Part shown: piece after piece, positions 27 to 30,168 of the stretch
Layout of the letters: the number at the start of each line of letters is the position of its first letter
Position numbering within the stretch: the first letter of the stretch is position 1
IMG/VR virus record: IMGVR_UViG_3300027917_000057
Coordinates: 1-53,635 of that record
Origin: a virus
Taxonomy: Duplodnaviria; Caudoviricetes
Strand: one strand, 5' to 3'
Length of the DNA stretch: 53,635 nucleotides
Program-made: the position numbers and the translations under genes
The notes under the pieces: generated by a model
What the model was told of the DNA's origin: nothing
The model's input: only the letters and a program-made list of their open reading frames with translations
Database searches by the model: none

Positions 27-3000
27 ATGTCTGGAGGATTCGGTGGTGGACCGTGGGGAGGTGGGCCTTGGGGCGGGGGAGGTGCTCCGCTAGTAGGCCC
101 GTCGCTGCCTATACCCACGGGCGACCCTTGGGACGTCTTTGAGGTCTGTACCCCTTCGATCATCGGTAACCTCGCGTCATATCTTGAGGTCAACCTCTTC
201 GGGGACGGCAACAGTTTCGCGTGGGGCGTTGGCTTCTTCAACATCTGCAGCGGCTTTGGTTTAGCCCCCGCAGCGCCCACCGCTCATGTTCAGTTCGACG
301 TCAACGTCAACGAAGAGTTCACGCTAGAAGCCACCGTTGTCTTCGACGCTCTGCCTGATGACTTCCTAGACCTTCCTAATGAGCACCTGTTTATTGGAGC
401 TTACAGCCTCAATAGCAGCGCAGCGGGGCTATTCATCTCAGACGACGGTCTGCAGTACACCGGCTCCGTCTCTTTCAGCGGAACCGATCTGGTAGTCGCG
501 TCTCCTGTGATCCCAATTCCTGGAACGGCAGGGTTGGTGCTACCGGGGGTTGAGTACGTCATTAGGATAATTGCTGACGCTCCTGCGGGTACTGCTCTCA
601 TCTATGTAACTGAGTCAACGCTACTACCGTCTACTGGGCAGCAGCTAATCGCCATTCTTCCTCTGCTCGACTATACGAGTGCCTCGCCACCACCCACTCA
701 AGACGAGGTGATCATCAGTGCGAGGAGCGCTAGTAGCGCCGGCTCCTGCGCCACCTTCAGCTGCATTCGCTTTGCCTCTAGCGCGCTCATCGAAAACATC
801 GCGCCCATTGCGGATGCTGGTGACGATCAGGCTGTTCGTATGTGCTCCATCGTCAAGCTCGATGGCGAGAGGAGCTACGACCCGGAGGGGCAACCGCTCT
901 CCTACGCGTGGCGGCTCATCGATGCGCCTCCTACGAGCTCTTTCATCTTCTCTGGGGGAGACGGATCGACCGCCCCAGAGGCCCCTCCTACGGGCTATAC
1001 CAACACACTCACGAGCGGGGAGGCTGCTGTAGAGCATGCGTTGAGCCCCTTCGATGTAGGGGACGTACTGGTGGTTCGTGGCGTCCCGTACACCATCGAC
1101 TCCATCCTCTCGGGTCCCTTCCGCATAGTCGTGGAAAGGTCGCAGATCCCAGATGACGTGTCTGGCGAGCCGTTCAAGATCCTTCGGCAGGCTGCCATCA
1201 GCGGCACCTCTACGGTCTCACCCACATTCTACCCAGACGTACCTGGGTTCTATCTGTTCGACCTCTTGGTCACCGATGGCTTCCTACCTTCAAGCCCCAC
1301 GGGCTTGGACAGGGACACGGTGCTCATCAATGTTCTGGAGTCTCCTCTTCCTAGAGGGTGCAACCCAGATGCGAGCTTCATCTTTGACTACCTGTTGAGC
1401 TTCTGGAAGTTGGTAGAAGACAGCGATGTCGTCGCTCAGTTCTGGACAGCGTTGGCTCAAGTAGCAGCTAGTGAGCTCTACACTCTCTGGCAGCTCGAGT
1501 ATTCGAAGAGTCTGCGGGACATTCAGCGGTCGTTTATCAGGCGTTGGATTCACTACGACCTACTTCTTCCAGAGCCTCTTCCAGAGCTCACCACCCTGCG
1601 AACAATCTGGGGTGGTGCGCTGTCCGACCCGCAGCCTGCTGCTGGAGTTGCCGGAATCAAGGGTACGAGCCTAGTCGTCACAACGCGTACGCTCCCTGCT
1701 GCAGTGACGGTGCCCTTCGATAGCCCTGGAACCGTTCCTATCCAGGAGCTTCGGGGCGTTATTGAGAACAGGCTCCGGTCGCTGGTAGACGACGGCTTCA
1801 GAGTCACGGCCGTAGAGAACCGCATCACGGGGGATTACACCTTCCGGATTCTGCTGGATAAGCCTTTTACCCTCACGAGTGACTCCACCCTCCCCATCTT
1901 CTCCAGCTACCCCAAGTTCAATGACAACCCTCGTGGAGTTGGTACGGTCACGGGCGGGAACACCTTCGACACCAACTTCTCTTTGAGCGGGTTGGGCCTC
2001 GAGGAAGATGACCTCATCGTTCTAGACCGCACGGGTTATCGCATTGCTCAGCTCGTTGATAACCCAGCCGATGCCTTTGCGTTCTCTCGCGTTCTTCTGA
2101 AGGAGGACATCAGCGGTACTCCTACGGATTGGGTGCTTCCTGGGTGGGTGCAGTCTGAGCTGCTGAACTTCTACGCTGGTCTTGTTGACTATGGGGACGT
2201 CCTGGAGTTTGAGGCGCTCGAGGATGACCCAGCTACGCCTGTTGTCGAGCAGGTAGCTAGTTTTCTTGAGACTACGGCCTTTGGTGTCACAGAGGGACTC
2301 TTCGGCCGCTTGGCGTTCGATACCAAAGACCTAGCTCAGCGGGTTCCTCTGAATGCTACTTCCGTTCTTCTGTCTAGGGTCATCCGCAGACACTACGTAC
2401 CTGTCGACCCTCTGATTCAAGCAGTACCCACGCTGACCCCCAACATAGTGATCGAGGACGATCAGGAGACGTTGAGGGAAAACGCCGACTACTTCCTAGA
2501 CACGTTCAGGGGGCAGGCCGCTCTGCGCTTCCAGTCTGGAACCCCCTCTGACGCCGGAGATGTGTGGGAGGGGGCTCGTCCCATTGATCGGCTCTGGGCG
2601 GAGTATACCTACGTAGACAATAGTCCACTGATAGAAGCGAATTTCGGCATCCCTATCGGTCTTCTTCGCGACGAGATTGCGGCTCTTCCCGACAACGTCG
2701 ACTACCTCTCGGCAGTGCGCGGTCTCTGGTACGCCTACTACAACGGCCCCACTGTCAGAAACATACGAATAGGTGCTCAGATTCTCCTCGGTCTTCCGTT
2801 CGCTGAGGAGGCGGGAGTCATCGAAGAGATCCGAAACGACTTCATTCTGAAGAGGGGACGGATCCTAATCAGGGATGCGGCCAATGCTGCCATTGTCCGG
2901 TCGTACGACTATCCAAATGTGTTGGATCTGGAGGTCAACCCAGTAACCAACGAGCCCTACGCAGTAGGCGACGCAGTCGATCAGTTCGCGCCACTAGTGA

Positions 3001-4457
3001 CCGGCGTTGAGGTGCTCGACTACGTGAACAGCCCCACCTGGTTCCGGGGTATCCTAAACCAGGGCATCTTCTTCGAGGTTCAGAAGTTCCACACGTTCTT
3101 GGTTCGGGTGAACAGCGCGGCTTTCAATCTGAGCTCGCTGTTGTTCACGCAGGAGTTTGTCAACAAGATCAAGCCTGTCTTCAAGAAGCCTCTTTTCTAC
3201 ATCCGCTTTGACGTGTCGGATGGTGGTGACGAGATAGACCTCACGGATCTGGTTCAGTACTTTCCTACGCTGAACCTATTCGAGAGCTGCTGCTCGGCAA
3301 CAGGCTGGGCGCCTATCGTGGACGACCCTGACCCGTCAGCTGACCCCCTTGGGAACCCGGAGGGGATGAAGACGGGAGCCTGGAAGAACGCGGTCGATAC
3401 AGATGGGGATGTCGCACCGACCTACCCGACACCGGACTCTCCGATCAAGTGGGGTGTGGACAAGCAGTACTTCTGCCCAGAGGACAGCGTGGCCACACTG
3501 CGATGCGAGGTGCATCCCGATGCCACCGCTGACATTGCCTTCGTCTCAGCAACAGAAGCAGACTTCACTAAGACTTCAGGTAGCTGGAACGATGTGCTCC
3601 TCGAGCTCGGGGACGTCATACAGGTCACCACAGGGTCGAACGCAGGTTTCACCTTCCTCGTCACGGATGTAACGGGATTCCCGACGGTCTTCCGTGGAAC
3701 GATCCTCAGTGGTGGGCCACCAGTAACCGAGCTCGCGCAGACGCTGATCCTCACCCCAAGGGTGGACTCTACCTTCCAGATAGACTCTGGGATTGAAGAG
3801 CACTACCACTACGAGGCGCTGTCTCCTGCTTCTATCCCGTTGGCGGGACTGACCCTAACACCGGTAGGCTCCAATATTTCCCAGCTCACTGGTACCTCTC
3901 TTATCACGACGGCCATCTTCCAGGGAGATCAGGGGGACGGACAGAGTGTTGGTATCTCGGTGCTCGACATCGTTACGGCAGCCTTCGCGAAGACAAGCGG
4001 TGGCTGGCCGGATGTAGACCTGCTCCTGGGCGACCTAGTACTCATTACTACTGGTTCAAACGCCGGTCAGGTATTTGAGGTCGTGGATGTATCGGGCTAC
4101 CCGTCCACTTTCATCGGGGAACAGAGAGCCGGAAGCGGCGCTCCTGTCAGCGAGCTGGGTCAGACACTCGTGAACCTAGGGCCTAGGTACGAAGTGGCCG
4201 TCCTGGTGAACAGCGTTGAGCAGGGAGCTTTCCAGTCCACTGTGAAGGAGAATCGGGAGACGGATGCTTCGTTGGCCATCGCCACAGTGCCTACTGACGT
4301 GATAGACGTCTTGGTCCGTCCTGCTGCGGGCACAGTTGCGCGGACGCCTAACTGGAGCAGGGTATCGGCCCTCATCCAGAACGTGGATGGGCAGTGGCAG
4401 GTAGACGTTCCAGTGCCCGCTAGCACCTACTGCATGAAGAGCGAGCTGGCTCCATGA
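27..4457 (+). CDS. Large virion structural protein (baseplate/tail-associated) with a PKD/Ig-like domain and a C-terminal internal repeat
   Basis: 1476-aa ORF. N-terminal GGGPWGGGPWGG; PKD-like motif APIADAGDDQAV...LDGERSYDPEGQPLSYAWRL; two copies of a ~78-aa repeat near the C-terminus; heads the structural cluster. Confidence 0.65.
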   Translation: MSGGFGGGPWGGGPWGGGGAPLVGPSLPIPTGDPWDVFEVCTPSIIGNLASYLEVNLFGDGNSFAWGVGFFNICSGFGLAPAAPTAHVQFDVNVNEEFTLEATVVFDALPDDFLDLPNEHLFIGAYSLNSSAAGLFISDDGLQYTGSVSFSGTDLVVASPVIPIPGTAGLVLPGVEYVIRIIADAPAGTALIYVTESTLLPSTGQQLIAILPLLDYTSASPPPTQDEVIISARSASSAGSCATFSCIRFASSALIENIAPIADAGDDQAVRMCSIVKLDGERSYDPEGQPLSYAWRLIDAPPTSSFIFSGGDGSTAPEAPPTGYTNTLTSGEAAVEHALSPFDVGDVLVVRGVPYTIDSILSGPFRIVVERSQIPDDVSGEPFKILRQAAISGTSTVSPTFYPDVPGFYLFDLLVTDGFLPSSPTGLDRDTVLINVLESPLPRGCNPDASFIFDYLLSFWKLVEDSDVVAQFWTALAQVAASELYTLWQLEYSKSLRDIQRSFIRRWIHYDLLLPEPLPELTTLRTIWGGALSDPQPAAGVAGIKGTSLVVTTRTLPAAVTVPFDSPGTVPIQELRGVIENRLRSLVDDGFRVTAVENRITGDYTFRILLDKPFTLTSDSTLPIFSSYPKFNDNPRGVGTVTGGNTFDTNFSLSGLGLEEDDLIVLDRTGYRIAQLVDNPADAFAFSRVLLKEDISGTPTDWVLPGWVQSELLNFYAGLVDYGDVLEFEALEDDPATPVVEQVASFLETTAFGVTEGLFGRLAFDTKDLAQRVPLNATSVLLSRVIRRHYVPVDPLIQAVPTLTPNIVIEDDQETLRENADYFLDTFRGQAALRFQSGTPSDAGDVWEGARPIDRLWAEYTYVDNSPLIEANFGIPIGLLRDEIAALPDNVDYLSAVRGLWYAYYNGPTVRNIRIGAQILLGLPFAEEAGVIEEIRNDFILKRGRILIRDAANAAIVRSYDYPNVLDLEVNPVTNEPYAVGDAVDQFAPLVTGVEVLDYVNSPTWFRGILNQGIFFEVQKFHTFLVRVNSAAFNLSSLLFTQEFVNKIKPVFKKPLFYIRFDVSDGGDEIDLTDLVQYFPTLNLFESCCSATGWAPIVDDPDPSADPLGNPEGMKTGAWKNAVDTDGDVAPTYPTPDSPIKWGVDKQYFCPEDSVATLRCEVHPDATADIAFVSATEADFTKTSGSWNDVLLELGDVIQVTTGSNAGFTFLVTDVTGFPTVFRGTILSGGPPVTELAQTLILTPRVDSTFQIDSGIEEHYHYEALSPASIPLAGLTLTPVGSNISQLTGTSLITTAIFQGDQGDGQSVGISVLDIVTAAFAKTSGGWPDVDLLLGDLVLITTGSNAGQVFEVVDVSGYPSTFIGEQRAGSGAPVSELGQTLVNLGPRYEVAVLVNSVEQGAFQSTVKENRETDASLAIATVPTDVIDVLVRPAAGTVARTPNWSRVSALIQNVDGQWQVDVPVPASTYCMKSELAP

Positions 4458-9872: not shown

Positions 9873-10904
9873 ATGACCTGGGCGGCGGACCTAATCAAGC
9901 AGGCGGAAGTAGAGGGCGGCTTCTACAAGGGCAAGCCTGCTAGCCCCGATAGTGTGAAGTTCGAAACGGACTTCCAGGGGCTCAAGGTCAAGGTAGACCG
10001 ACCCAAGGGATTCATCATGTTCGGCACTGACCACAGCGGTGCCAAGTGGCGGAGAACCTACAAGGTCGACTATGGGTTCATCCCTAAGACCCTGGGAGGG
10101 GATAGCGACGGACTCGACGTGTTCATCGGACCCAGCAAGAAGGCAGCAAACGCCTTCTGGGTGGTTCAGAGAAAGCCGGACGGGAGCTTCGATGAGTACA
10201 AGATCTTCTTGGGCTTCGATAACAGAGACGAGGCCATAGCCTGCTACCGTGCGCACATCCCCAAGAAGTTCTTTGGGCGGATGATGAGCATGACTGTAGA
10301 GATGATGAAGGCTATGTTGGGGGATGAGCCGCAGGAGTCTGTGAAGCCTCAGAACGGTGCGGTTAAGGACACGAGCCTGTCAACTAGAGTTAAGAAGGCC
10401 TCCTGGAGTGGCTTCCTCTCAGAGATGCTCAAACAGGTGGGGACCGCCGTTCTCGTACTTTTGCTGGTCTTCCCTTCGACTGCTCGGGCACAGAGCGTAG
10501 AGAGCATACCTCCGGGCCCGGACAAGATTCAGCCTCTGCAGCTCAAAGAGCCGGCTCCTTACTCTGGGATGCTCTATGACTATGACACCGCACTGCGTTG
10601 GGGTAACTGGCTGAAGCAATACCAGCTACGGCTGAAAATCGATGTGGAGGCCGAGAAGAAGAAGTGCGATGTGGAGCTCGCTGCTGGAAGGAAGATTCTG
10701 GCTCTTACTGAGGGTGCGCACAAAGAGTCGGAGAGGGACCTCAAGGCGCGTGTCCTCAAGCTCGAGCAGAGGAACGTGGAGCTAGAGAAAGAGCTGCGAA
10801 ACCCCTCTTGGTACAACACGCGTACCTTCGGAGTCATCGTAGGGGTAACCGGCTCAGCCCTTCTATTCGGGCTTAGCGTCTACGCTTTGGATCGGGCGCG
10901 ATGA
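9873..10904 (+). CDS. Inorganic-pyrophosphatase-like (InPase) domain fused to a signal-peptide/coiled-coil/TM module
   Basis: DYGFIPKTLGGDSDGLDVFIG and FDEYKIFLGF motifs in the N-terminal half; internal MLKQVGTAVLVLLLVFPSTARA; C-terminal TM. Confidence 0.6.
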   Translation: MTWAADLIKQAEVEGGFYKGKPASPDSVKFETDFQGLKVKVDRPKGFIMFGTDHSGAKWRRTYKVDYGFIPKTLGGDSDGLDVFIGPSKKAANAFWVVQRKPDGSFDEYKIFLGFDNRDEAIACYRAHIPKKFFGRMMSMTVEMMKAMLGDEPQESVKPQNGAVKDTSLSTRVKKASWSGFLSEMLKQVGTAVLVLLLVFPSTARAQSVESIPPGPDKIQPLQLKEPAPYSGMLYDYDTALRWGNWLKQYQLRLKIDVEAEKKKCDVELAAGRKILALTEGAHKESERDLKARVLKLEQRNVELEKELRNPSWYNTRTFGVIVGVTGSALLFGLSVYALDRAR

Positions 10905-21825: not shown

Positions 21826-22344
21826 ATGGGCTTCGCGGTGTATGGCCCGGATGAAACGAAAGTACCTTTGTTCCTGACCATCACCAGAGAGGGGCTAGGC
21901 GGAGTTGCCGGCAAGGCTCCAGTAGTAGCGCTGAGGAATAACCTCAACGATTACTTCTTGGACTTCGCGGACAACACTTTCAAGGCCGCTGGTTGGACCA
22001 CGAAGGAGCAGACACTTACCGATCTCGGTGGGGGTCACTACCGCTACGATCTAAATCTGGCCGTTATTGGCGCGGCCAATGAAGATATCTACGTTGCGGA
22101 GTTCCGAGTCGATGACGGGGGTGCTGTGATGGGGGCAGCGCAAGACTTCATCCTGATAGAAGACCTTCCCATTATGAGGCGGATCATCACCAATCGTCTG
22201 GAGGACTTCCCAGGAAATCCTGGTACCCTGATCCTATACGATGATGATGGTGTCACACCCTTGAAATCCTGGGAGCTCAGGGACGCCACCGGAGGCGCCG
22301 TGTCTGCCGCAGCTGGGGCTCCAGCTAAGAGGAAACCGGTATGA
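21826..22344 (+). CDS. Virion-associated hypothetical protein
   Basis: 172 aa; LILYDDDGVTPL motif; end of the structural operon. Confidence 0.55.
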   Translation: MGFAVYGPDETKVPLFLTITREGLGGVAGKAPVVALRNNLNDYFLDFADNTFKAAGWTTKEQTLTDLGGGHYRYDLNLAVIGAANEDIYVAEFRVDDGGAVMGAAQDFILIEDLPIMRRIITNRLEDFPGNPGTLILYDDDGVTPLKSWELRDATGGAVSAAAGAPAKRKPV

Positions 22345-22568
22345 GCGACCGCACTGGATTCGTTGCTCGTGGCTTCCACAAGCTGGGCCCGCTGACGGTT
22401 ACCCACGGCTTAGGTAACCCTGGCTCTCCACCCTTCTTCTTTCTTCCTGGGCCCACTGTGCCGGAGGAGCAGACGGTAGACGGAACGCAGGGGCCACGTA
22501 CAGTTGTGGAGAACAAGACAGCCCCCAAAGCCGACCTGTACCTTCCTAAGGCTAGAAAGAAATGCTGA
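22341..22568 (+). CDS. Small hypothetical protein
   Basis: 75 aa, ATGA-coupled; last gene before the strand switch. Confidence 0.45.
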   Translation: MSDRTGFVARGFHKLGPLTVTHGLGNPGSPPFFFLPGPTVPEEQTVDGTQGPRTVVENKTAPKADLYLPKARKKC

Positions 22569-22576
22569 GAGGAGGC

Positions 22577-22596
22577 GAGGGCCCCTAAGGGCCCTC
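22577..22596. terminator. Hairpin at the convergence of the + and - operons
   Basis: GAGGGCCC-CTAA-GGGCCCTC; no U-tract. Confidence 0.4.
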
Positions 22597-22700
22597 CCAT
22601 GCTGCGCGTACTAGGTCGTCCTCAGATCGGAAGCCTAGCTGACGTGCTACGTCGATCTTCTGTAAGGGCAATAGAGCGTTGAGCTGCGCGAGGTCTATCT

Positions 22701-22767
22701 CGAGGACGTCTTCGGCCCGGGGCAGAACGCACCCGGGCCAGACGTCGGCCTCGCTTAGCCTTTTCCC
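22701..22767 (-). other. Putative -1 programmed ribosomal frameshift signal
   Basis: On the minus strand: in-frame G GGA AAA heptamer (22767-22761), 7-nt spacer, then a long hairpin (22753-22701). The -1 frame stays open to TAG at 22585. Confidence 0.75.
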
Positions 22768-23621
22768 TGCTGCTCGAGCCCTTGTAGTAGGAGGCTGACG
22801 CCGCCTCCATTGAGCGATGCTCCCCACCGAGGCAGGAAGTTCTCTCTGGGCTGCTGGGCCATGGCTTCGTAGAGGTCCACCACGATGGTCAGCAGTACCG
22901 CCAGCATCTGACTGTTCCCCACGGTGGCCGCATGGATAGCCCTCATCATCTCGATGGAGGCAAGGTCACCCTCTGCTACCTTGGAGAGCGTGTTGATGAT
23001 CTCTTCATTGTTCTCTGCCAGCCTCTTGAGGATGGCGGCGCTGGGGCCTGGGTCGACCGATGGCTTCCTCCCTGTCGTCTTTGTGGGAGGCTCCGGGTCT
23101 CTCTCGTCAGGGGGCTGAGGAGCCTGCTGTGGGGCAGGCCGGGCCATCCCCGGCATGTTCATGGGGCCGGGCATTCTGCCTACAGGAGCGACGGTTCCCG
23201 GCAGGGCCATCTGTTGGCCCGGAGGGGCCATCGGTGGGCGAGCAGGGCCCGGTAGCGTCATGGGGCCGCCTGGAGGTGCCTGCGTCATCGTGGGAACCAT
23301 CTGCGGAGGATACTGGGGGGCTTGGGATGGCTGCATCTGAGGGGGTGTAGGGTACTGCACCTGAGTGGCCATCTGGGGAGGCATCTGCCCTTGCATAGGG
23401 GCAGGGCGCGGCGCGCTCCCATTGCTGGGTGAGTAGGCAGCCTTGCTGGCTTCGAAAAGTGCCTGAGCCTGGGCCTCGGGGCTGGCTACGCCGTAGGCCT
23501 GCTTGTCCTCGATGCTCGGGAGGGCCTTTAGGCGGTTCATGGCTCCGAAGCGCTGCGAGGGCGTCATAGCCATGCAAGTTTCGAGAGTAAGGGGGCCTTC
23601 TTGCTGGATGTTGAGTTTCAT
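22755..23621 (-). CDS. Pro/Gln/Met-rich protein; probable frameshift-extended isoform to 22585
   Basis: 288 aa with a central low-complexity region; ends QQGKG* over the slippery site. Confidence 0.7.
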   Translation of the reverse strand: MKLNIQQEGPLTLETCMAMTPSQRFGAMNRLKALPSIEDKQAYGVASPEAQAQALFEASKAAYSPSNGSAPRPAPMQGQMPPQMATQVQYPTPPQMQPSQAPQYPPQMVPTMTQAPPGGPMTLPGPARPPMAPPGQQMALPGTVAPVGRMPGPMNMPGMARPAPQQAPQPPDERDPEPPTKTTGRKPSVDPGPSAAILKRLAENNEEIINTLSKVAEGDLASIEMMRAIHAATVGNSQMLAVLLTIVVDLYEAMAQQPRENFLPRWGASLNGGGVSLLLQGLEQQGKG

Positions 23622-23996
23622 TCACTTCCTCAGGTTGTTGATGAGGTGCTCGTACTGATGGCCCTGTACCAGACAGGTCACCACCTGCATGTCGGAGCAC
23701 CCGAAGCATGGTCGCGGATCCGGATTGGGAACGTCTTTCAGGTTCTTGGCCGGACAGGTCAGCTGTGGTCGCAGGCTCATCCAGTAAGCGTCGATGAAAC
23801 TGATGAGTCCGTTCCTCCAGGAGTCGATCGAGCCGGCGGTTTCTGGTAGCTCGAGCTCACCAGAAATCCAACCGATATACTCTTCCGCACTTCTACCTGG
23901 AGGAACCTGCAAGCCGTTTCGTCGGCAAGTTTGGTAGAGCTCGGTGAGGTTAACCCCGGCTAGGAGCTGGTGAAAATCGACACTCGAATTGTACAT
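23622..23996 (-). CDS. Small Cys-rich hypothetical protein
   Basis: 124 aa; N-terminal NLTELYQTCRRNGL helix pair; C-terminal CPAK...CFGC...C. Confidence 0.6.
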   Translation of the reverse strand: MYNSSVDFHQLLAGVNLTELYQTCRRNGLQVPPGRSAEEYIGWISGELELPETAGSIDSWRNGLISFIDAYWMSLRPQLTCPAKNLKDVPNPDPRPCFGCSDMQVVTCLVQGHQYEHLINNLRK

Positions 23997-24465
23997 GTCG
24001 CTCTACCTCGTCAAAGGGGCAGTCGTCCTGCTCCCAGCTCCACGCCCAGATCTCAGTTCGCTCCTCTTCTTCCGTCCTAGCAGATTCTTTCCACAGAAGG
24101 ATGCGGAAGTGCTGAGAATCATCGTGCCCGCACGCAGCGGTGAGCGCGTCTTCTAGGAGCTTCAGTCTGTTGCTCACATCAACTTTCTTATACCGGTTTG
24201 CGGCTCCTCCTGGCGTTCCCCACGTTTTGGACAGCAGGTCGGCCATGTAGAACCGGACCACAAGACAGTATGGGAGGTCTGGCTTGAAGAACCTAAGAAC
24301 GTCCTGCCTGCTCTGGGCCAGGTAAGTCTTCACGCCGGTCTTGTATCTCTTACCCTCCGCAGTGAGAACCCGTAAGGGGATGCTCTTGTTGCCCTTCCTC
24401 TGGACCTTGGTGAAATATGCGTGGTTGGAAGAGGGTGGGAGCCCATCTAGGACGAAGTAGATCAT
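23950..24465 (-). CDS. rusA: RusA-family Holliday junction resolvase
   Basis: PPSSNHAY and DVSNRLKLLEDAL...DDSQ catalytic signature. Confidence 0.85.
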   Translation of the reverse strand: MIYFVLDGLPPSSNHAYFTKVQRKGNKSIPLRVLTAEGKRYKTGVKTYLAQSRQDVLRFFKPDLPYCLVVRFYMADLLSKTWGTPGGAANRYKKVDVSNRLKLLEDALTAACGHDDSQHFRILLWKESARTEEEERTEIWAWSWEQDDCPFDEVERHVQFECRFSPAPSRG

Positions 24466-25046
24466 CGCATCTGCCCCATTGGGCGACGCCCAGCCATCTT
24501 TCCACCGAGGTCGATGTTCTGACCGCGTATAGTTACCTGACGGCTCAGACCAGAAGCAAGGCGCTCCAGGCTGTCGATTCGGGCTTTTAGCACTGCTTCG
24601 GTATTCTTGAGCTCAGCTAGGTCTCTGCGGATCTGACGGCACCGAGGGTACGACTGCGCCTCTTCCTTGATCTCTGTTTCTGACGGCTGGTTCTTCTTCG
24701 GGACGTTTTCGTGCTGCTTGCGATACTGGCGTTTGATCTCTCGTTCTAGGTCTCTCAGCTCTTCTTCTAGCCCTATGATGTGCCCTTCGCACCACGCGTG
24801 CCGGTCCTTGGCATACACGAACCAGAGGTCTACGAGAGCCATGAGTCTGGTGTACTGGTCGCCCTCGATGTTCTCGTAGTCTCGGATGGAGATGTGAGGG
24901 AAGTCACCCTCGGGTTTGGGGAGTTCGTCGAATCCCATCATGACTAGCTTTTGGTAACTGCTGTCGTAGACATCCCAGAAGTCCTCTATGGTTTGCTGCT
25001 GTCGGTCTGGGATGCCCAAGCCTTGAACAGTCAAGCCTTGCGTCAT
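24462..25046 (-). CDS. Coiled-coil protein in the recombination cluster (possible recombination mediator)
   Basis: 194 aa, long helical heptads; function inferred from position only. Confidence 0.45.
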   Translation of the reverse strand: MTQGLTVQGLGIPDRQQQTIEDFWDVYDSSYQKLVMMGFDELPKPEGDFPHISIRDYENIEGDQYTRLMALVDLWFVYAKDRHAWCEGHIIGLEEELRDLEREIKRQYRKQHENVPKKNQPSETEIKEEAQSYPRCRQIRRDLAELKNTEAVLKARIDSLERLASGLSRQVTIRGQNIDLGGKMAGRRPMGQMR

Positions 25047-25900
25047 CTAAACTCTCCAGGAGGAGGTGGTCCTCTCCTCTTTCGGGTTAGGCCTGCCAGC
25101 GTTGTTGGCATGCAGGTCCATGAGTAGGGGCACCAACCGCAGGGCATGCCCTCTGAGCGATCTGGCAGTGTTCCGGTAGCTGCTAGAGAGTGCGCCTGTT
25201 GCATCTTGTTCTCTAGGCGGTTCCAGAGCTTGTGGTCAAAGGCTACTAGGTAGGGCGCCTTGGGGCTGGTCCAGTTCGAGTTCGACTTGTTGTAGTAGAA
25301 GAACCACATCAAAGGGAGGTCCAAGACCTTCATGTAGACGTGGGCTTGTTCTAGGTGGTAGTCGAGTGGTTTGCGGAGTTTGGCGAACTCCTTGTCGCTC
25401 ATCGACTTGATCTCGAGGCCTACTCGGAGGTACGGGGTGTGGTTCGAGAAGAACAGAAACTCCCCGTCGCTGTGCGAGTAGATCTCGTACTTCTTGGTTA
25501 GCTCATTCAGCTCGGGAGTGATCTCGACCTCAGACTGAAATTCGACGGTTCCATCGGACATCCAGCACATTCGGTCGAAGTCGTCCTGAGCCAGAGAGTG
25601 CAGCAGCGTCCCCTGCTGGAAACGCCGCCGCATGTTGGTGTTGACCCGCTCTGGGTCGTTCTTCTTCTCAGTGGCCGCGATGGAGTAGACAACTCTCCGC
25701 AGGCAGCCAGAGATCTCCGAGGCGTGAACACCGTTTGCCCTGTCTTCGTCACCTCCCATGGGGACGTGTATGACGCGCCGGGCAGTATCTCTCTTCTTGT
25801 ACTCCTCGTAGAGGTCTCCGAGCCACGCGACGTTCGGCAGAAGGCTCTGCCATCCGTCCCTTCCCAGGTCATCGATCGTCAGCAGTTGCGGTGGGTTCAA
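25043..25900 (-). CDS. Cas4-like PD-(D/E)XK exonuclease
   Basis: SEISGCLRR, HSDG, LEIKS, QAHVYM and C-terminal CGWCPYSWTC (1+3 Cys Fe-S pattern). Confidence 0.85.
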   Translation of the reverse strand: MNPPQLLTIDDLGRDGWQSLLPNVAWLGDLYEEYKKRDTARRVIHVPMGGDEDRANGVHASEISGCLRRVVYSIAATEKKNDPERVNTNMRRRFQQGTLLHSLAQDDFDRMCWMSDGTVEFQSEVEITPELNELTKKYEIYSHSDGEFLFFSNHTPYLRVGLEIKSMSDKEFAKLRKPLDYHLEQAHVYMKVLDLPLMWFFYYNKSNSNWTSPKAPYLVAFDHKLWNRLENKMQQAHSLAATGTLPDRSEGMPCGWCPYSWTCMPTTLAGLTRKRRGPPPPGEFR

Positions 25901-26387
25901 GTCGGCTCTCCCATTCTTGTAAGGGGACTAGGACCCACTGTTCCTGGGTCACTAAGGTGGTGGGGGCTTTGAAGTCGATCTGAAAGACTGGGATCTGCCC
26001 CCGTTCGCACTCTGACCGAAGCTTGTGCAGCTCCGCCCTCGTGACCCTTATGCCCTTCCCGGCAGTGAACTTGTTCTCGATCCTGTACTTCTCGCGAATC
26101 GAGGCATCACTCTTCCGTCCGGGGACGCTGCCAGATCCGATGTTACGGTGGCCTCCGTGGATTTGCGCAACGCGCTCCTCCTGCCGCATGGACGCACGCC
26201 GCCGTCTCTTGAGAGTAGCTCTATCTTCCGCTTCGGGCTTTGATAGAAGGAGCGTCTTTTCTTCCCCATCGCTCATGGGGATGTAGATTTCCCCAGTATA
26301 GCCATCCATTCGCCCCGCGAGATGTAAGAACCAGTTTCCATGCTCGTCGGTGACCAGCCTGGGCAGTACGCTCACCGATACAAACAT
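25869..26387 (-). CDS. PD-(D/E)XK endonuclease, Holliday junction resolvase-like
   Basis: QEERVA...GSGS...KSD...IENK pattern. Confidence 0.65.
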   Translation of the reverse strand: MFVSVSVLPRLVTDEHGNWFLHLAGRMDGYTGEIYIPMSDGEEKTLLLSKPEAEDRATLKRRRRASMRQEERVAQIHGGHRNIGSGSVPGRKSDASIREKYRIENKFTAGKGIRVTRAELHKLRSECERGQIPVFQIDFKAPTTLVTQEQWVLVPLQEWESRLEPTATADDR

Positions 26388-27676
26388 TGCTTCCCTGCTG
26401 ACGACAGGATCTCCCTACGGAAGACGAGCTCGAGGTCGAAGCTTTTGGCCAGGGCTTCCCTTAGCCCTGCTTCGTCTTGTGCGGAGGCTCCCTCGATGGG
26501 CTGTCGGGTGGTAGCGCTGAAGAGTTGGATCCCTTGAGGTACATGGACCAGGACTCCTCTCCGCAGCGCGCTAGCGATGAGCTCTCCGTGAAGGTCCACA
26601 CCTCCAAGATGATAGTAGTAGGGAAATTCGCCTGTAATGTTGTCGTGGGTGCCCGCTTTTCCCTTGAGGGTTTTGTACTTGATCCACTTACCCGCTATGT
26701 CGGACCCACCCTTTATCTTCTCCCCACTCCACATCACGAGGTCGATGAGCTTGTAGTGCTTGGAGCTCTCCCCGCCTTTTACCGTCCACTCCTGGATGTA
26801 CTTTTGTATGGCAGGGTTCATGTTCGCCCGTTCCTGGTTGGCAACTACCTGCTGAATGAAGAGGACCGTGGTCGCATTCTTCCCTCTGTTGACGAGCGGG
26901 GAATAGCGCATCCAGAACCTCTTCATCATGGTGGCGTGTGAACCTCGTCGCTCATCGTCGCTCAGGTCTTTGTCCAGGTCTGCCTCAGGTCGAAGAGAAG
27001 CGATAGAGTCCACTCCGATCACGGAGAAGATGTCCTGCTGCACGCAATCGAGCACGCCTCCCAGAGTTTCTTCTCCAGAGACCCCCGATATGGTCTCCAG
27101 TCGCCCGATACTTGTCTTGAAGTAGGCGAGTTCTTCCTGTGTGAACTGCGGGAGGCCCGAGATGTAGCGTGCCTCTGCCGCCTGATTCAGCAGGGCGTCT
27201 GGGACCTCTATACGAACGCCAGCTGAGATCGCCTGGTCGTAGGGGAAGGCCTGCTCGCCCACATGCAGGGCACCGTAGAAGTCCTTTCCGTAGATCTGTT
27301 GCTGCATGGCGATGGTTCGGAAGAGCAGCCAGCTCTTGCCGCTGTTGAAGGGGCCGCTAATCATAGAAGCACCACCAGCAGGGAACCCTCCACCCAACGC
27401 GATGTCTAGCTCGATGACGCCCGTTGGACGTCGCAGCATGTACTGATTCTCCCCCTCGCTAGCGGGGTACAGGCGCTCCTTCAAATGTGTGCGGAGCGCA
27501 CGGAGTCTAGAGGCCTTCTCCGTAGGGCTGAGCTCTCGCTGTTTCGTGAACGGATTTACCGGTTCCTCTGCGACGATAGTCTCGGCAGGAGCCGACGCTA
27601 CGGGTTGTGCCGACTCCTTCTTCGAGACCTTCTTCGCCGCCTTCTTCCCTACTTTTTTCTTTCTCCCTGTTGCCAT
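26372..27676 (-). CDS. recA: RecA/UvsX-like recombinase
   Basis: PTGVIELDIALGGGFPAG, Walker A GPFNSGKS, Walker B VDSIASL. Start moved to ATG 27676. Confidence 0.9.
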   Translation of the reverse strand: MATGRKKKVGKKAAKKVSKKESAQPVASAPAETIVAEEPVNPFTKQRELSPTEKASRLRALRTHLKERLYPASEGENQYMLRRPTGVIELDIALGGGFPAGGASMISGPFNSGKSWLLFRTIAMQQQIYGKDFYGALHVGEQAFPYDQAISAGVRIEVPDALLNQAAEARYISGLPQFTQEELAYFKTSIGRLETISGVSGEETLGGVLDCVQQDIFSVIGVDSIASLRPEADLDKDLSDDERRGSHATMMKRFWMRYSPLVNRGKNATTVLFIQQVVANQERANMNPAIQKYIQEWTVKGGESSKHYKLIDLVMWSGEKIKGGSDIAGKWIKYKTLKGKAGTHDNITGEFPYYYHLGGVDLHGELIASALRRGVLVHVPQGIQLFSATTRQPIEGASAQDEAGLREALAKSFDLELVFRREILSSAGKQCLYR

Positions 27677-27834
27677 GGATCTCCTGTTTCCTCGAACGGT
27701 TCTGTTCCATGCGTGGGGCACTTGAGCAGCTGCCCCAGCTTCACCAGAGGCCGCCCACATTCGGGGCATCCTTTGGCCGCCTTCTTCTCCAACTGTTCTT
27801 GATCTGCTCCCTCAACGACGCCGAGCTTTTCCAT
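27649..27834 (-). CDS. Small zinc-ribbon protein
   Basis: 61 aa; CPECG...CPTHG; fills the gap between the HU-like and RecA genes. Confidence 0.65.
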   Translation of the reverse strand: MEKLGVVEGADQEQLEKKAAKGCPECGRPLVKLGQLLKCPTHGTEPFEETGDPWQQGERKK

Positions 27835-28122: not shown

Positions 28123-30168
28123 TTACTTGGCTTGTCCCCATGAGTTCCCCACTCCTGCTTCGGCCGTCAGAGGGCAGGCCAGTTCTGATGTGAATGGGTG
28201 GGCCATCATGTCTTCGATGAGGGCCTTCACCTCTTCCGTCGTTTCCTCCGGGGCCTCGAACACCAACTCATCATGGATCTGCAGCAGCATGTAGGCGCCG
28301 TAGTGGTAGTCCAGCGCCATGGCATCCAGATTGAGCTGCGCCATCTTGGTCACGTCTGCTGCCGACCCCTGGATCTGGGTGTTCACTGCGAGGCGTTCAC
28401 CCAACGCTTGTTCATCCTTTCGATACGAAGAGATCATTGGGATGTTGCGTCGGCGCCCTAGGACAGTGAAGGCGTAGCCGTACTTCTTCCCCTCCTCGAC
28501 GGCCTCTGTGAAGAAGCGGTCGACTGCGGGGTAGGTCTCTTTGTAGGTCCTGATCTTGTCCTGCGCTTCTCTAAGGCTAGAGTTGATCTGCTTGCTAAGC
28601 TTGCCCGCACCCATACCGTAGTTGAGCCCGAAGCCGATGCTCTTCGCGTCATTTCTGGCTTTCAGGCACTCACGCACGTAGGCCATGACACCGTCTACGC
28701 TGAAGCCGTAGCGGTTTTGAATCGCCTCGATCCCACCGGACAGGCTTTGCTGCACCAGTACCAGAACCTCTTCTGGAGTTAGCTCGCCCTTCTTGATCTT
28801 CTTGTCGATGACGTTCTTGCAGTAGTCAATATGCTCGTACTCGATGTCGAACATCAGACTGGCGTTGCCCTGATGAATGTCCCAGCCTCTGCGGAAGATA
28901 TCGATCATCGATTCCTCCATAGCGGCTGCGGACAGAAGACGCATCTCCAGCTGAGAGTAGTCAGCTGCCAGGATCTTGTTGCCCGGAGTGGTGATAAACG
29001 CTTCCCGGATCCCCCACTTGTCGTTCTCTGGCCGGGGAATGTTCTGCAGGTTGGGGTTGGAGCTAGAAAGACGGCCGGTGCGTGCCACGTCTTGATTGAA
29101 CGTGGAGTGGATGCGCCCATTGGGGTCTCGAACGTCTAGGAGCCCTACCAAGTAGGTACCGTGCAGCTTGGAGTACTCACGATGGGTCAGCACTAGCTCT
29201 GCGGCCAAGACCTCATTCTTGTAGTGCTCCAAGAACTCGCTATCTACGCTGGCTTGCTGGACGCCGGTCTTCCCACCCTTGGTTTTCCTCAGCGGTTCGA
29301 GGCCCAGTTCATCGATGAAGTACTCTCGCATCTGCGGCGTGCTGTTGATGTTGAGCATCCTGCCCACGGTTTTGACGATCTCTCGTCCTATCCGGTTGAT
29401 TTCAGCCTCTGCCTCAGGACGGGCTTTTTCTAGACGGTTCACGTCGATGAGGATCCCCCGACGTTCCATCTTCCAGAGGACCTTGGTGAAAGGGACCTCG
29501 ATCTTGTGAAAGTAGTCCCACAGGGTGTTGATATAGGGTGGTTCGTCGCTGAAGAGAGAGTGGGTGAATGAGCTCTCTAGCTGCTTTCGGAGCTCATGGA
29601 ATATGAGCAGAGTGCCCCAGGCATCATTGGCCGCGTATTCGACAAGTAGGTTGAAGTTCTCGCTCTCGGCTCTTTTGATGAGCTGTTCTGCGGACTGCTT
29701 CTTCCCGATCTTCCCGAAGGTGTCTTGGAAGTCAGCCCAGGTCCAGCCAAGGATGTGCTGCGCTATGAACTTCAGTCGGTGCGGCTTGTCTTCGTACAGA
29801 AGAGAGTGCATCACCTGTACGCAGTTGAGCCTACCTGCCAAGTTGATCCCCACGTTAGCGAGAATGTGCGCGTCGTACTTGGCGTTCGCGAGAATCCAAT
29901 CCTTCTTGGAGTCTGCGAAGGCCTCCATGAAGTACGGAAGGAGCTCAGCGTTTAGGGTGGCTCTCCTATTCGTGCCCCAGGCTAGCGACCAGTAGAGGGG
30001 TATGTCCCGCCAGTTCACCAAGCCCGTAGTCTCGGTGTCGATGGCCACGTAGCGCTCAGCAGCGACTTCTCGGATTATGTTCTCGAGTCTCTCGCCAGTA
30101 TAGGGGCAGGTCGTGTACCCAGGGCCGAAGTACATGGTCGTGGGTAGATCGATGTTCCATCCTGTCAT
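28123..30168 (-). CDS. polA: Family A DNA polymerase with 3'-5' exonuclease domain
   Basis: Exo motifs DTETTG, NAKYD, YAAND; TGRLSSSNPNLQNIP; motif A DYSQLEMR; motif B AKSIGFGLNYG; motif C QIHDEL. Confidence 0.97.
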   Translation of the reverse strand: MTGWNIDLPTTMYFGPGYTTCPYTGERLENIIREVAAERYVAIDTETTGLVNWRDIPLYWSLAWGTNRRATLNAELLPYFMEAFADSKKDWILANAKYDAHILANVGINLAGRLNCVQVMHSLLYEDKPHRLKFIAQHILGWTWADFQDTFGKIGKKQSAEQLIKRAESENFNLLVEYAANDAWGTLLIFHELRKQLESSFTHSLFSDEPPYINTLWDYFHKIEVPFTKVLWKMERRGILIDVNRLEKARPEAEAEINRIGREIVKTVGRMLNINSTPQMREYFIDELGLEPLRKTKGGKTGVQQASVDSEFLEHYKNEVLAAELVLTHREYSKLHGTYLVGLLDVRDPNGRIHSTFNQDVARTGRLSSSNPNLQNIPRPENDKWGIREAFITTPGNKILAADYSQLEMRLLSAAAMEESMIDIFRRGWDIHQGNASLMFDIEYEHIDYCKNVIDKKIKKGELTPEEVLVLVQQSLSGGIEAIQNRYGFSVDGVMAYVRECLKARNDAKSIGFGLNYGMGAGKLSKQINSSLREAQDKIRTYKETYPAVDRFFTEAVEEGKKYGYAFTVLGRRRNIPMISSYRKDEQALGERLAVNTQIQGSAADVTKMAQLNLDAMALDYHYGAYMLLQIHDELVFEAPEETTEEVKALIEDMMAHPFTSELACPLTAEAGVGNSWGQAK

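Follow-up and report, generated by a model that had tools for sequence, protein, structure and literature searches.

The window, that is, the whole stretch of DNA that was analysed (53,635 nt), is a 53.6-kb virus record with an estimated completeness of 29%. Its minus strand carries a conserved replication and recombination block consisting of a family A DNA polymerase (PolA; 28123-30168), an HU-like protein, a RecA-like protein (26372-27769), a resolvase-like protein, a Cas4-like exonuclease (25043-25900), a coiled-coil protein, RusA (23950-24465), a Cys-motif protein of 124 aa (23622-23996), and, as the last gene, a Pro/Gln-rich (P/Q-rich) gene of 288 aa (22755-23621). The whole block is syntenic in the relatives wherever the locus is long enough. 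Convergent plus-strand genes, including one for a LamG-like protein, lie downstream. The Cys-motif protein has the conserved pattern CPAKN...PDP.PCF.C.D.QV..C, matches no family, and is syntenic in all six lineages whose locus extends that far; the TGA stop of its gene abuts the ATG of the P/Q-rich gene. On the converging side, a plus-strand ORF of 75 aa (22341-22568) has a 44%-identical counterpart at the same convergent position in lineage L048 (1446-1736) and may be a real small gene. The product of a further plus-strand gene (9873-10904) has 343 aa and a domain resembling inorganic pyrophosphatase (InPase, E 1.8e-29); this protein is kept in lineages L037, L040, and L053, where it is located close to the converging end of the block.

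The 288-aa P/Q-rich protein finds no match in Pfam, PHROGs, or the PDB sequence profiles, and a search of the Atlas returned nothing significant. Proteins of the same architecture are present in the eight other lineages described below and in the protein homologues P0003 and P0004. P0003 has 293 aa and the C-terminus QSGKG, and P0004 has 341 aa and the C-terminus QPGKG, with its extra length coming solely from a longer P/Q linker; both thus end in GKG like the window protein. A good ribosome-binding site precedes the P/Q-rich gene in each lineage. Similarity of the P/Q-rich protein to tail assembly chaperones was searched for in Pfam and PHROGs with zero matches. A preliminary description of this DNA had placed the gene at the end of a replication/recombination operon and in a non-tail context, and both statements agree with these searches and with the PolA, RecA-like, Cas4-like, and RusA neighbours.

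The 3' end of the 288-aa ORF reads CAG CAG GGA AAA GGC TAA, so that GGGAAAA (22767-22761, minus strand) forms a slippery heptamer G_GGA_AAA of the X_XXY_YYZ type in the zero frame, 3 nt before the zero-frame TAA stop (22757-22755). From the heptamer onwards, the -1 frame (22767-22585) reads GK followed by RLSEADVWPGCVLPRA...AAWEGP*, i.e., 58 residues beyond the lysine (RLSEADVWPGCVLPRAEDVLEIDLAQLNALLPLQKIDVARQLGFRSEDDLVRAAWEGP), and closes with a TAG at 22587-22585. The -1 ORF thereby continues for 170 nt beyond the zero-frame stop. Its sole canonical start codon is a GTG located 29 codons before the W codon of the conserved WPGC motif, and this GTG has no Shine-Dalgarno-like sequence upstream. 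The sequence GGGAAAAGG was considered as a Shine-Dalgarno element for a downstream start and ruled out, as no in-frame start codon follows it. The TAG lies in the loop of a terminal hairpin, GAGGGCCC-UUAG-GGGCCCUC (22574-22598, minus strand), with a folding energy of -23.7 kcal/mol and a z of -2.14. If the plus-strand ORF 22341-22568 is real, the gap between it and the end of the -1 ORF is just 16 nt long and contains the terminal hairpin. The in-frame heptamer, the 58-aa -1 ORF without a convincing start, and its end at the hairpin where the operons converge had all been proposed in the preliminary description, and each was found as proposed.

The heptamer is not remarkable by its number, as the window contains four copies of GGGAAAA against an expectation of 4.07. 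Of the four, a single copy combines an in-frame position close to the 3' end of a long ORF with a -1 ORF continuing 170 nt beyond the stop. A second in-frame GGGAAAA of the X_XXY_YYZ type is found at 26657-26663 (minus strand) inside the RecA-like gene; it is probably a chance occurrence, because the -1 frame there stops after 30 codons, well within that gene. The significance of the heptamer comes from its conservation in relatives and not from its copy number.

Relatives were gathered via a peptide motif of the -1 ORF, and not via the heptamer. L002 was obtained from a metagenome scan and L003-L007 from IMG/VR scans. In IMG/VR, 30 loci matched a degenerate DNA pattern for W-P-G-C-x-L-P-x-x-x-D, and 10 of them are real relatives; two of these are the L002 and L005 viruses again, and the other eight represent six new lineages, namely L040 (=L035), L037, L042, L048 (=L043), L050, and L053. 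Together with the window, L002, and L005, this gives nine distinct lineages, all belonging to an uncultured phage clade known from contigs of 60-190 kb. A looser IMG/VR pattern gave three new loci, none of them real, and a word-index search of proteins added only P0017, which is the protein of L050. Among prokaryote genomes, a peptide-pattern scan found no relative, and the degenerate DNA pattern found 23 loci with no relative after translation. Among 50,697 phage isolate records, no match was obtained by blastn with 22300-24500 or by tblastn with the 288-aa protein, and the Cas4-like neighbour had only 27%-identical Paenibacillus phage matches; the collections searched hold no cultured phage relative. 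A public-run contig, X1, spans 22400-23406 with no difference to the window and may come from the source sample, and three other public-run contigs (X3, X4, and X5) do not span the heptamer.

A homologous P/Q-rich gene followed by a WPGC-motif ORF in the -1 frame is present in all nine lineages. An exact in-frame GGGAAAA is present in seven of them, ending 0-2 codons (0, 3, or 6 nt) before the zero-frame stop. The distance is 3 nt in the window and in L002 (CAG CCG GGA AAA GGC TGA), L040 (CAG CAG GGA AAA GGC TGA), L042 (TCC CAG GGA AAA GCG TAG), and L048 (CTC ATG GGA AAA GCC TAG), 0 nt in L037 (TCT GCG GGA AAA TAG), and 6 nt in L053 (TCA CCG GGA AAA GCC GGG TAG). The codon in front of GGA AAA differs across these seven (CAG in the window, L040, and L042, CCG in L002 and L053, GCG in L037, and ATG in L048). 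Since every lineage was ascertained through the tail peptide motif, the conservation of the heptamer is not an artefact of selection. Moreover, the heptamer is built from two minor codons, GGA accounting for 13-19% of Gly codons and AAA for 10-31% of Lys codons in those genomes, and codon usage predicts that an x-G-K tripeptide would be encoded as NNG GGA AAA with a probability of about 0.006-0.013 per lineage. That a minor-codon heptamer is kept points to selection at the nucleotide level in addition to any selection for a Gly-Lys C-terminus.

The two remaining lineages keep the -1 ORF and the frame relation despite the missing GGGAAAA. L005 reads TTG GGG GGA CAA CAG GGC TGA (2980-3002), with an in-frame G_GGG_GGA located 9 nt before the stop and a GGC adjoining the TGA. 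L050 reads CAA CAG AAG AAA GCC TAA (10790-10830) and has no X_XXY_YYZ sequence whatever in the stretch CAG AAG AAA GCC TAA; its frame layout is reproducible, since the same protein is found on four contigs. The preliminary description had named homologues without the slippery site or without the -1 ORF as the finding that would speak against frameshifting. In the homologues, the -1 ORF is kept in nine of nine lineages, and the heptamer stands in seven and is missing from two, an outcome that supports the frameshift interpretation.

The -1 region behaves as coding sequence. In the region from the zero-frame stop to the -1 stop, none of the nine lineages has a stop in the -1 frame, whereas the other two frames contain 20 and 15 in total. 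Purifying selection on the -1 peptide is indicated by a protein-guided alignment, in which pN is lower than pS in all 36 pairs, with a mean pN/pS of 0.61 (Nei-Gojobori), where pS is often near saturation and the pairs are non-independent because the sequences are related. The window and L002 have -1 regions of the same length (183 nt) with 72% nucleotide identity; translated in the -1 frame they share 40 of 61 residues, and translated in the other frames 32 of 60 and 35 of 60. Their differences fall on codon positions 1, 2, and 3 as 15, 15, and 21, a modest third-position excess, and include synonymous changes of two or three bases such as CGT to AGA (Arg) and TCT to AGC (Ser). Eight of the nine lineages lack any ATG, GTG, or TTG in the interval from the upstream -1-frame stop to the W codon. 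The L053 interval spans just 12 open codons and includes the heptamer.

In four lineages the -1 stop is a TAG in the loop of a terminal hairpin, namely in the window (22585-22598), L002 (4585-4600), L005 (3160-3185, followed by a U-run), and L040 (3543-3560), and in L048 a hairpin with a U-run comes directly after it. The terminal hairpin is probably the end of the convergent transcripts. Given these hairpins at the -1 stop, the -1 ORF is most likely part of the mRNA, whose end would lie shortly beyond it.

A profile built from three tails was scored against 1.84 billion representative proteins. It gave 10 matches at E <= 1e-3, of which three are unrelated repeat proteins and seven are short ORFs of 46-77 aa. 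Two of the short ORFs (46-47 aa) start within the conserved motif and end in EWEGL, and the other five (63-77 aa) share the pattern WPGCxLP...D.VE.D...LG. No P/Q-rich protein with an in-frame tail fusion was found with this profile among the 1.84 billion representatives. Gene callers either miss the tail or call truncated ORFs of 46-77 aa, and the present reading indicates how it should be annotated.

The most conserved motif of the extension is WPGCVLPRA in the window (22714-22740, minus strand; WPGCxLP[RK] in the alignments). Invariant or nearly so across the tails are WPGC, LP, a stretch of acidic character (D.VE.D), and a segment L..L....L...A+.LG. Searches of Pfam, PHROGs, and the PDB sequence profiles with the tail gave nothing significant. 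As a weak lead, the segment DLAQLNALLPLQKIDVARQLGF (22630-22695, minus strand) is a candidate HeH/SAP/Rho_N-like element: Pfam Rho_N is hit in two of 16 family members, with a best E of 0.012 and a score of 16 bits, short of the 24.9 cut-off, the closest clusters of Atlas features are HeH/LEM (0.86), SAP (0.82), and Rho_N (0.81), all under the bar of 0.9, and the PDB chain 2rno_A ("putative DNA-binding protein") matches the tail with an E of 1.2. These matches hint at a helix-extension-helix motif and at possible nucleic-acid binding by the tail. The string QLNALL in the tail was considered as a clamp-binding motif and dropped, as it is not conserved in the alignment.

Downstream of the heptamer, the window has a strong hairpin of 53 nt (22753-22701, minus strand), which is a candidate frameshift stimulator. 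It is separated from the heptamer by a 7-nt spacer, GGCUAAG, which contains the zero-frame stop, and its stems are CGAGG/CCUCG, GACGUCU/AGACGUC, and GGCCCGGG/CCCGGGCC. The 96-nt fold of the window has an energy of -50.1 kcal/mol and a z of -3.53, with none of 200 shuffles folding as well, and the 75-nt fold has -41.8 kcal/mol and a z of -3.61. Among the 75-nt folds, those of L005 and L050 being anchored at the stop codon, z is below -3 in only three of nine lineages (window; L005, -3.12; L037, -3.63), and the others have values of -1.60 (L048), -1.26 (L053), -0.65 (L002), -0.64 (L040), +0.09 (L042), and +0.84 (L050). Read by eye, the GC-rich core of the hairpin is encoded by the WPG and PR[AP] codons (WPG and PRA in the window), and a GGCC(C/G)GGG-type core is present in five of nine lineages, i.e., the window, L002, L005, L037, where it is GGCCGGGG/CCCCGGCC, and L048, where it has a G-U pair. 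In L040, L042, L050, and L053, the core is lost (Lys for Arg) with the peptide motif retained. No Rfam family reached its gathering score in 22300-23000.

The distance from the heptamer to the W codon, and so to the WPG-encoded hairpin, ranges from 14 to 26 nt across the lineages, and a 7-nt spacer arises only where outer stems lengthen the hairpin, as they do in the window. Because its position and strength vary and the 7-nt spacer depends on the outer stems, the hairpin does not define the family; the heptamer is accompanied more constantly by the adjacent stop codon. The hairpin is probably a frameshift stimulator in the window phage and not a defining feature of the family. The 7-nt spacer and long stem of the preliminary description are therefore upheld for the window, by the folding of 22753-22701 (z -3.53), and do not extend to the family as a whole.

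Taken together, the conserved -1 frame, the heptamer, and the missing starts favour the frameshift interpretation that had been offered at the outset, and the last gene of the replication/recombination block very likely has a programmed -1 ribosomal frameshift at its 3' end. As judged from the sequences, the gene very probably makes proteins of 288 and roughly 345 residues, and this arrangement is kept in the relatives. Most ribosomes would decode ...Gln-Gln-Gly-Lys-Gly and terminate, giving the 288-aa protein. Some ribosomes would slip back by one base as the tRNAs for Gly and Lys leave G_GGA_AAA and pair anew with GGG_AAA; in the window phage, the hairpin that begins 7 nt further on and the stop codon close by would probably promote this slip. 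The shifted ribosomes would read 58 more codons to yield a trans-frame product of 287 + 58 = 345 aa. The added tail would bring the WPGCxLP[RK] motif and then a short, possibly helix-extension-helix-like segment, and the outcome would be a fixed ratio of short and tailed forms of one P/Q-rich protein. The predicted junction peptide of the trans-frame product is QQGK-RLSEADVWPGCVLPR (...QQGK-RLSEADV...), and a peptide internal to the -1 ORF, e.g., LSEADVWPGCVLPR, would mark translation of the -1 ORF only and not the junction.

The -1 ORF could instead be a separate small WPGC/HeH-like gene of about 50-60 aa, translated from a non-canonical start or by reinitiation and never fused to the P/Q-rich protein. 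The short ORFs of 63-77 aa from the profile search share the motif, two of them, P0013 (MSAAELWPGC...) and P0014 (MKLWPGC...), begin with M just before WPGC and may have starts of their own, and CTG codons occur 2-6 codons before the W in L002, L005, L040, and L042. Even so, this reading is unlikely, since eight of the nine lineages lack ATG, GTG, and TTG, near-cognate starts are also missing from the 15 codons before the W in the window, L048, L050, and L053, and the calls of P0007 and P0008 begin within the conserved motif, apparently an artefact caused by the lack of a start. It also leaves the invariant minor-codon heptamer of seven lineages unaccounted for. The same heptamer bears on a change of frame by another route, be it slippage of a single P-site tRNA at a slow stop codon or transcriptional slippage. 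The constant presence of the stop 0-2 codons past the heptamer would suit such a route, as would L005, where a Gly-tRNA on the G_GGC adjoining TGA could re-pair on GGG, and L050, which lacks a canonical site. However, it is the entire heptamer and not one codon that is invariant in seven of nine lineages, and four A in a row fall short of the runs generally known to support transcriptional slippage, so that this route is very unlikely.

As another alternative, the 170 nt after the stop could be a structured, non-coding 3' UTR whose -1 frame is open owing to high G+C; by a rough arithmetic estimate, a 58-codon open frame has a chance of about 15% at ~60% G+C, the region has two stable hairpins, and the third-position excess between the window and L002 is modest. 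Against this stand the zero stops in the -1 frame of all nine lineages, the pN below pS in every pair, and the persistence of WPGCxLP in L040, L042, L050, and L053, where the hairpin core is lost; moreover, there are protein homologues at the HMM level and no Rfam family at gathering score, which makes a non-coding region extremely unlikely. Short homopolymer runs are indel-prone in some sequencing chemistries, and an assembly or sequencing indel could in principle have split one gene. Nevertheless, nine lineages, each assembled separately, have the same two-frame layout, as do the proteins called as P0002-P0004 and P0017, contig X1, possibly from the source sample itself, agrees with the window over its whole span, and the tail-profile search retrieved no in-frame version, and so the probability of such an error is next to negligible. 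Programmed -1 frameshifting remains the preferred explanation, and the comparative evidence for it is about as strong as sequence alone can give.

According to the PRFect paper, annotated phage frameshifts are mostly in tail chaperone genes, and the other reported classes include capsids, polymerases, RusA/RuvC, and others (PMC10885494). No description of the P/Q-rich frameshift family was found in the literature in a search that was not exhaustive. This is a new gene family that very probably uses a known mechanism, the canonical -1 frameshift, and the recoding catalogue gains a gene family. The locus also offers a natural compact cassette, made of the heptamer, the adjacent stop, and a lineage-variable hairpin, for asking which elements are needed.

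The E. coli dnaX gene, which encodes tau and gamma, uses a -1 frameshift on A_AAA_AAG with a 3' hairpin as stimulator, and ribosomes that shift make the shorter product, since they meet a stop almost immediately. The P/Q-rich gene resembles dnaX in its association with replication, in its predicted -1 frameshift, and, in the window, in a stem-loop downstream as candidate stimulator. In contrast to dnaX, the shift would lengthen the P/Q-rich product and add a domain to it, the slippery heptamer is not the same, and inspection of the flanks by eye shows no Shine-Dalgarno-like element conserved upstream in the lineages. The dnaX frameshift is among the references of PMC10885494.

For the tail, the comparison is with C-terminal add-ons of DNA-repair proteins, of which the HEH tail of Streptomyces Ku and the SAP of eukaryotic Ku70 are examples (PMC11936186). 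The likeness is a helix-extension-helix module of about 40 aa placed C-terminally on a protein of DNA metabolism, with a candidate HeH in the present case. The Ku modules described there are in frame, whereas the tail of the P/Q-rich protein would join only a fraction of the molecules, by recoding.

The closest known arrangement is that of lambda G/GT. PMC5009743 describes G_GGA_AAG as very prone to shifting in E. coli and the -1 frameshift of lambda g-t as setting a 30:1 ratio. In contrast to lambda, the P/Q-rich gene closes a PolA/RecA-like/Cas4-like/RusA block and is not in a tail module between the major tail and tape measure genes, its extension of ~58-70 aa has a WPGC motif and a possible HeH-like segment and no T domain, and the window has a strong 3' hairpin. 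On the other hand, the heptamer is nearly identical (G_GGA_AAR), with few codons before the stop of the upstream frame, and the predicted minor isoform is C-terminally extended and shares the whole of the short protein. The layout is, moreover, kept across divergent phages, and no in-frame fusion has been seen for the P/Q-rich family. A tentative and rather doubtful extension of this likeness is that a stoichiometry device of the lambda G/GT type has moved to genome replication, where a fixed ratio of untethered forms to forms tethered to nucleic acid by the HeH-like tail would let a largely disordered P/Q/M-rich hub organise the replication/recombination machinery. If so, both forms would be required, which would account for the absence of in-frame fusions from all lineages. 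The predicted two-isoform protein may matter for how these phages organise replication.
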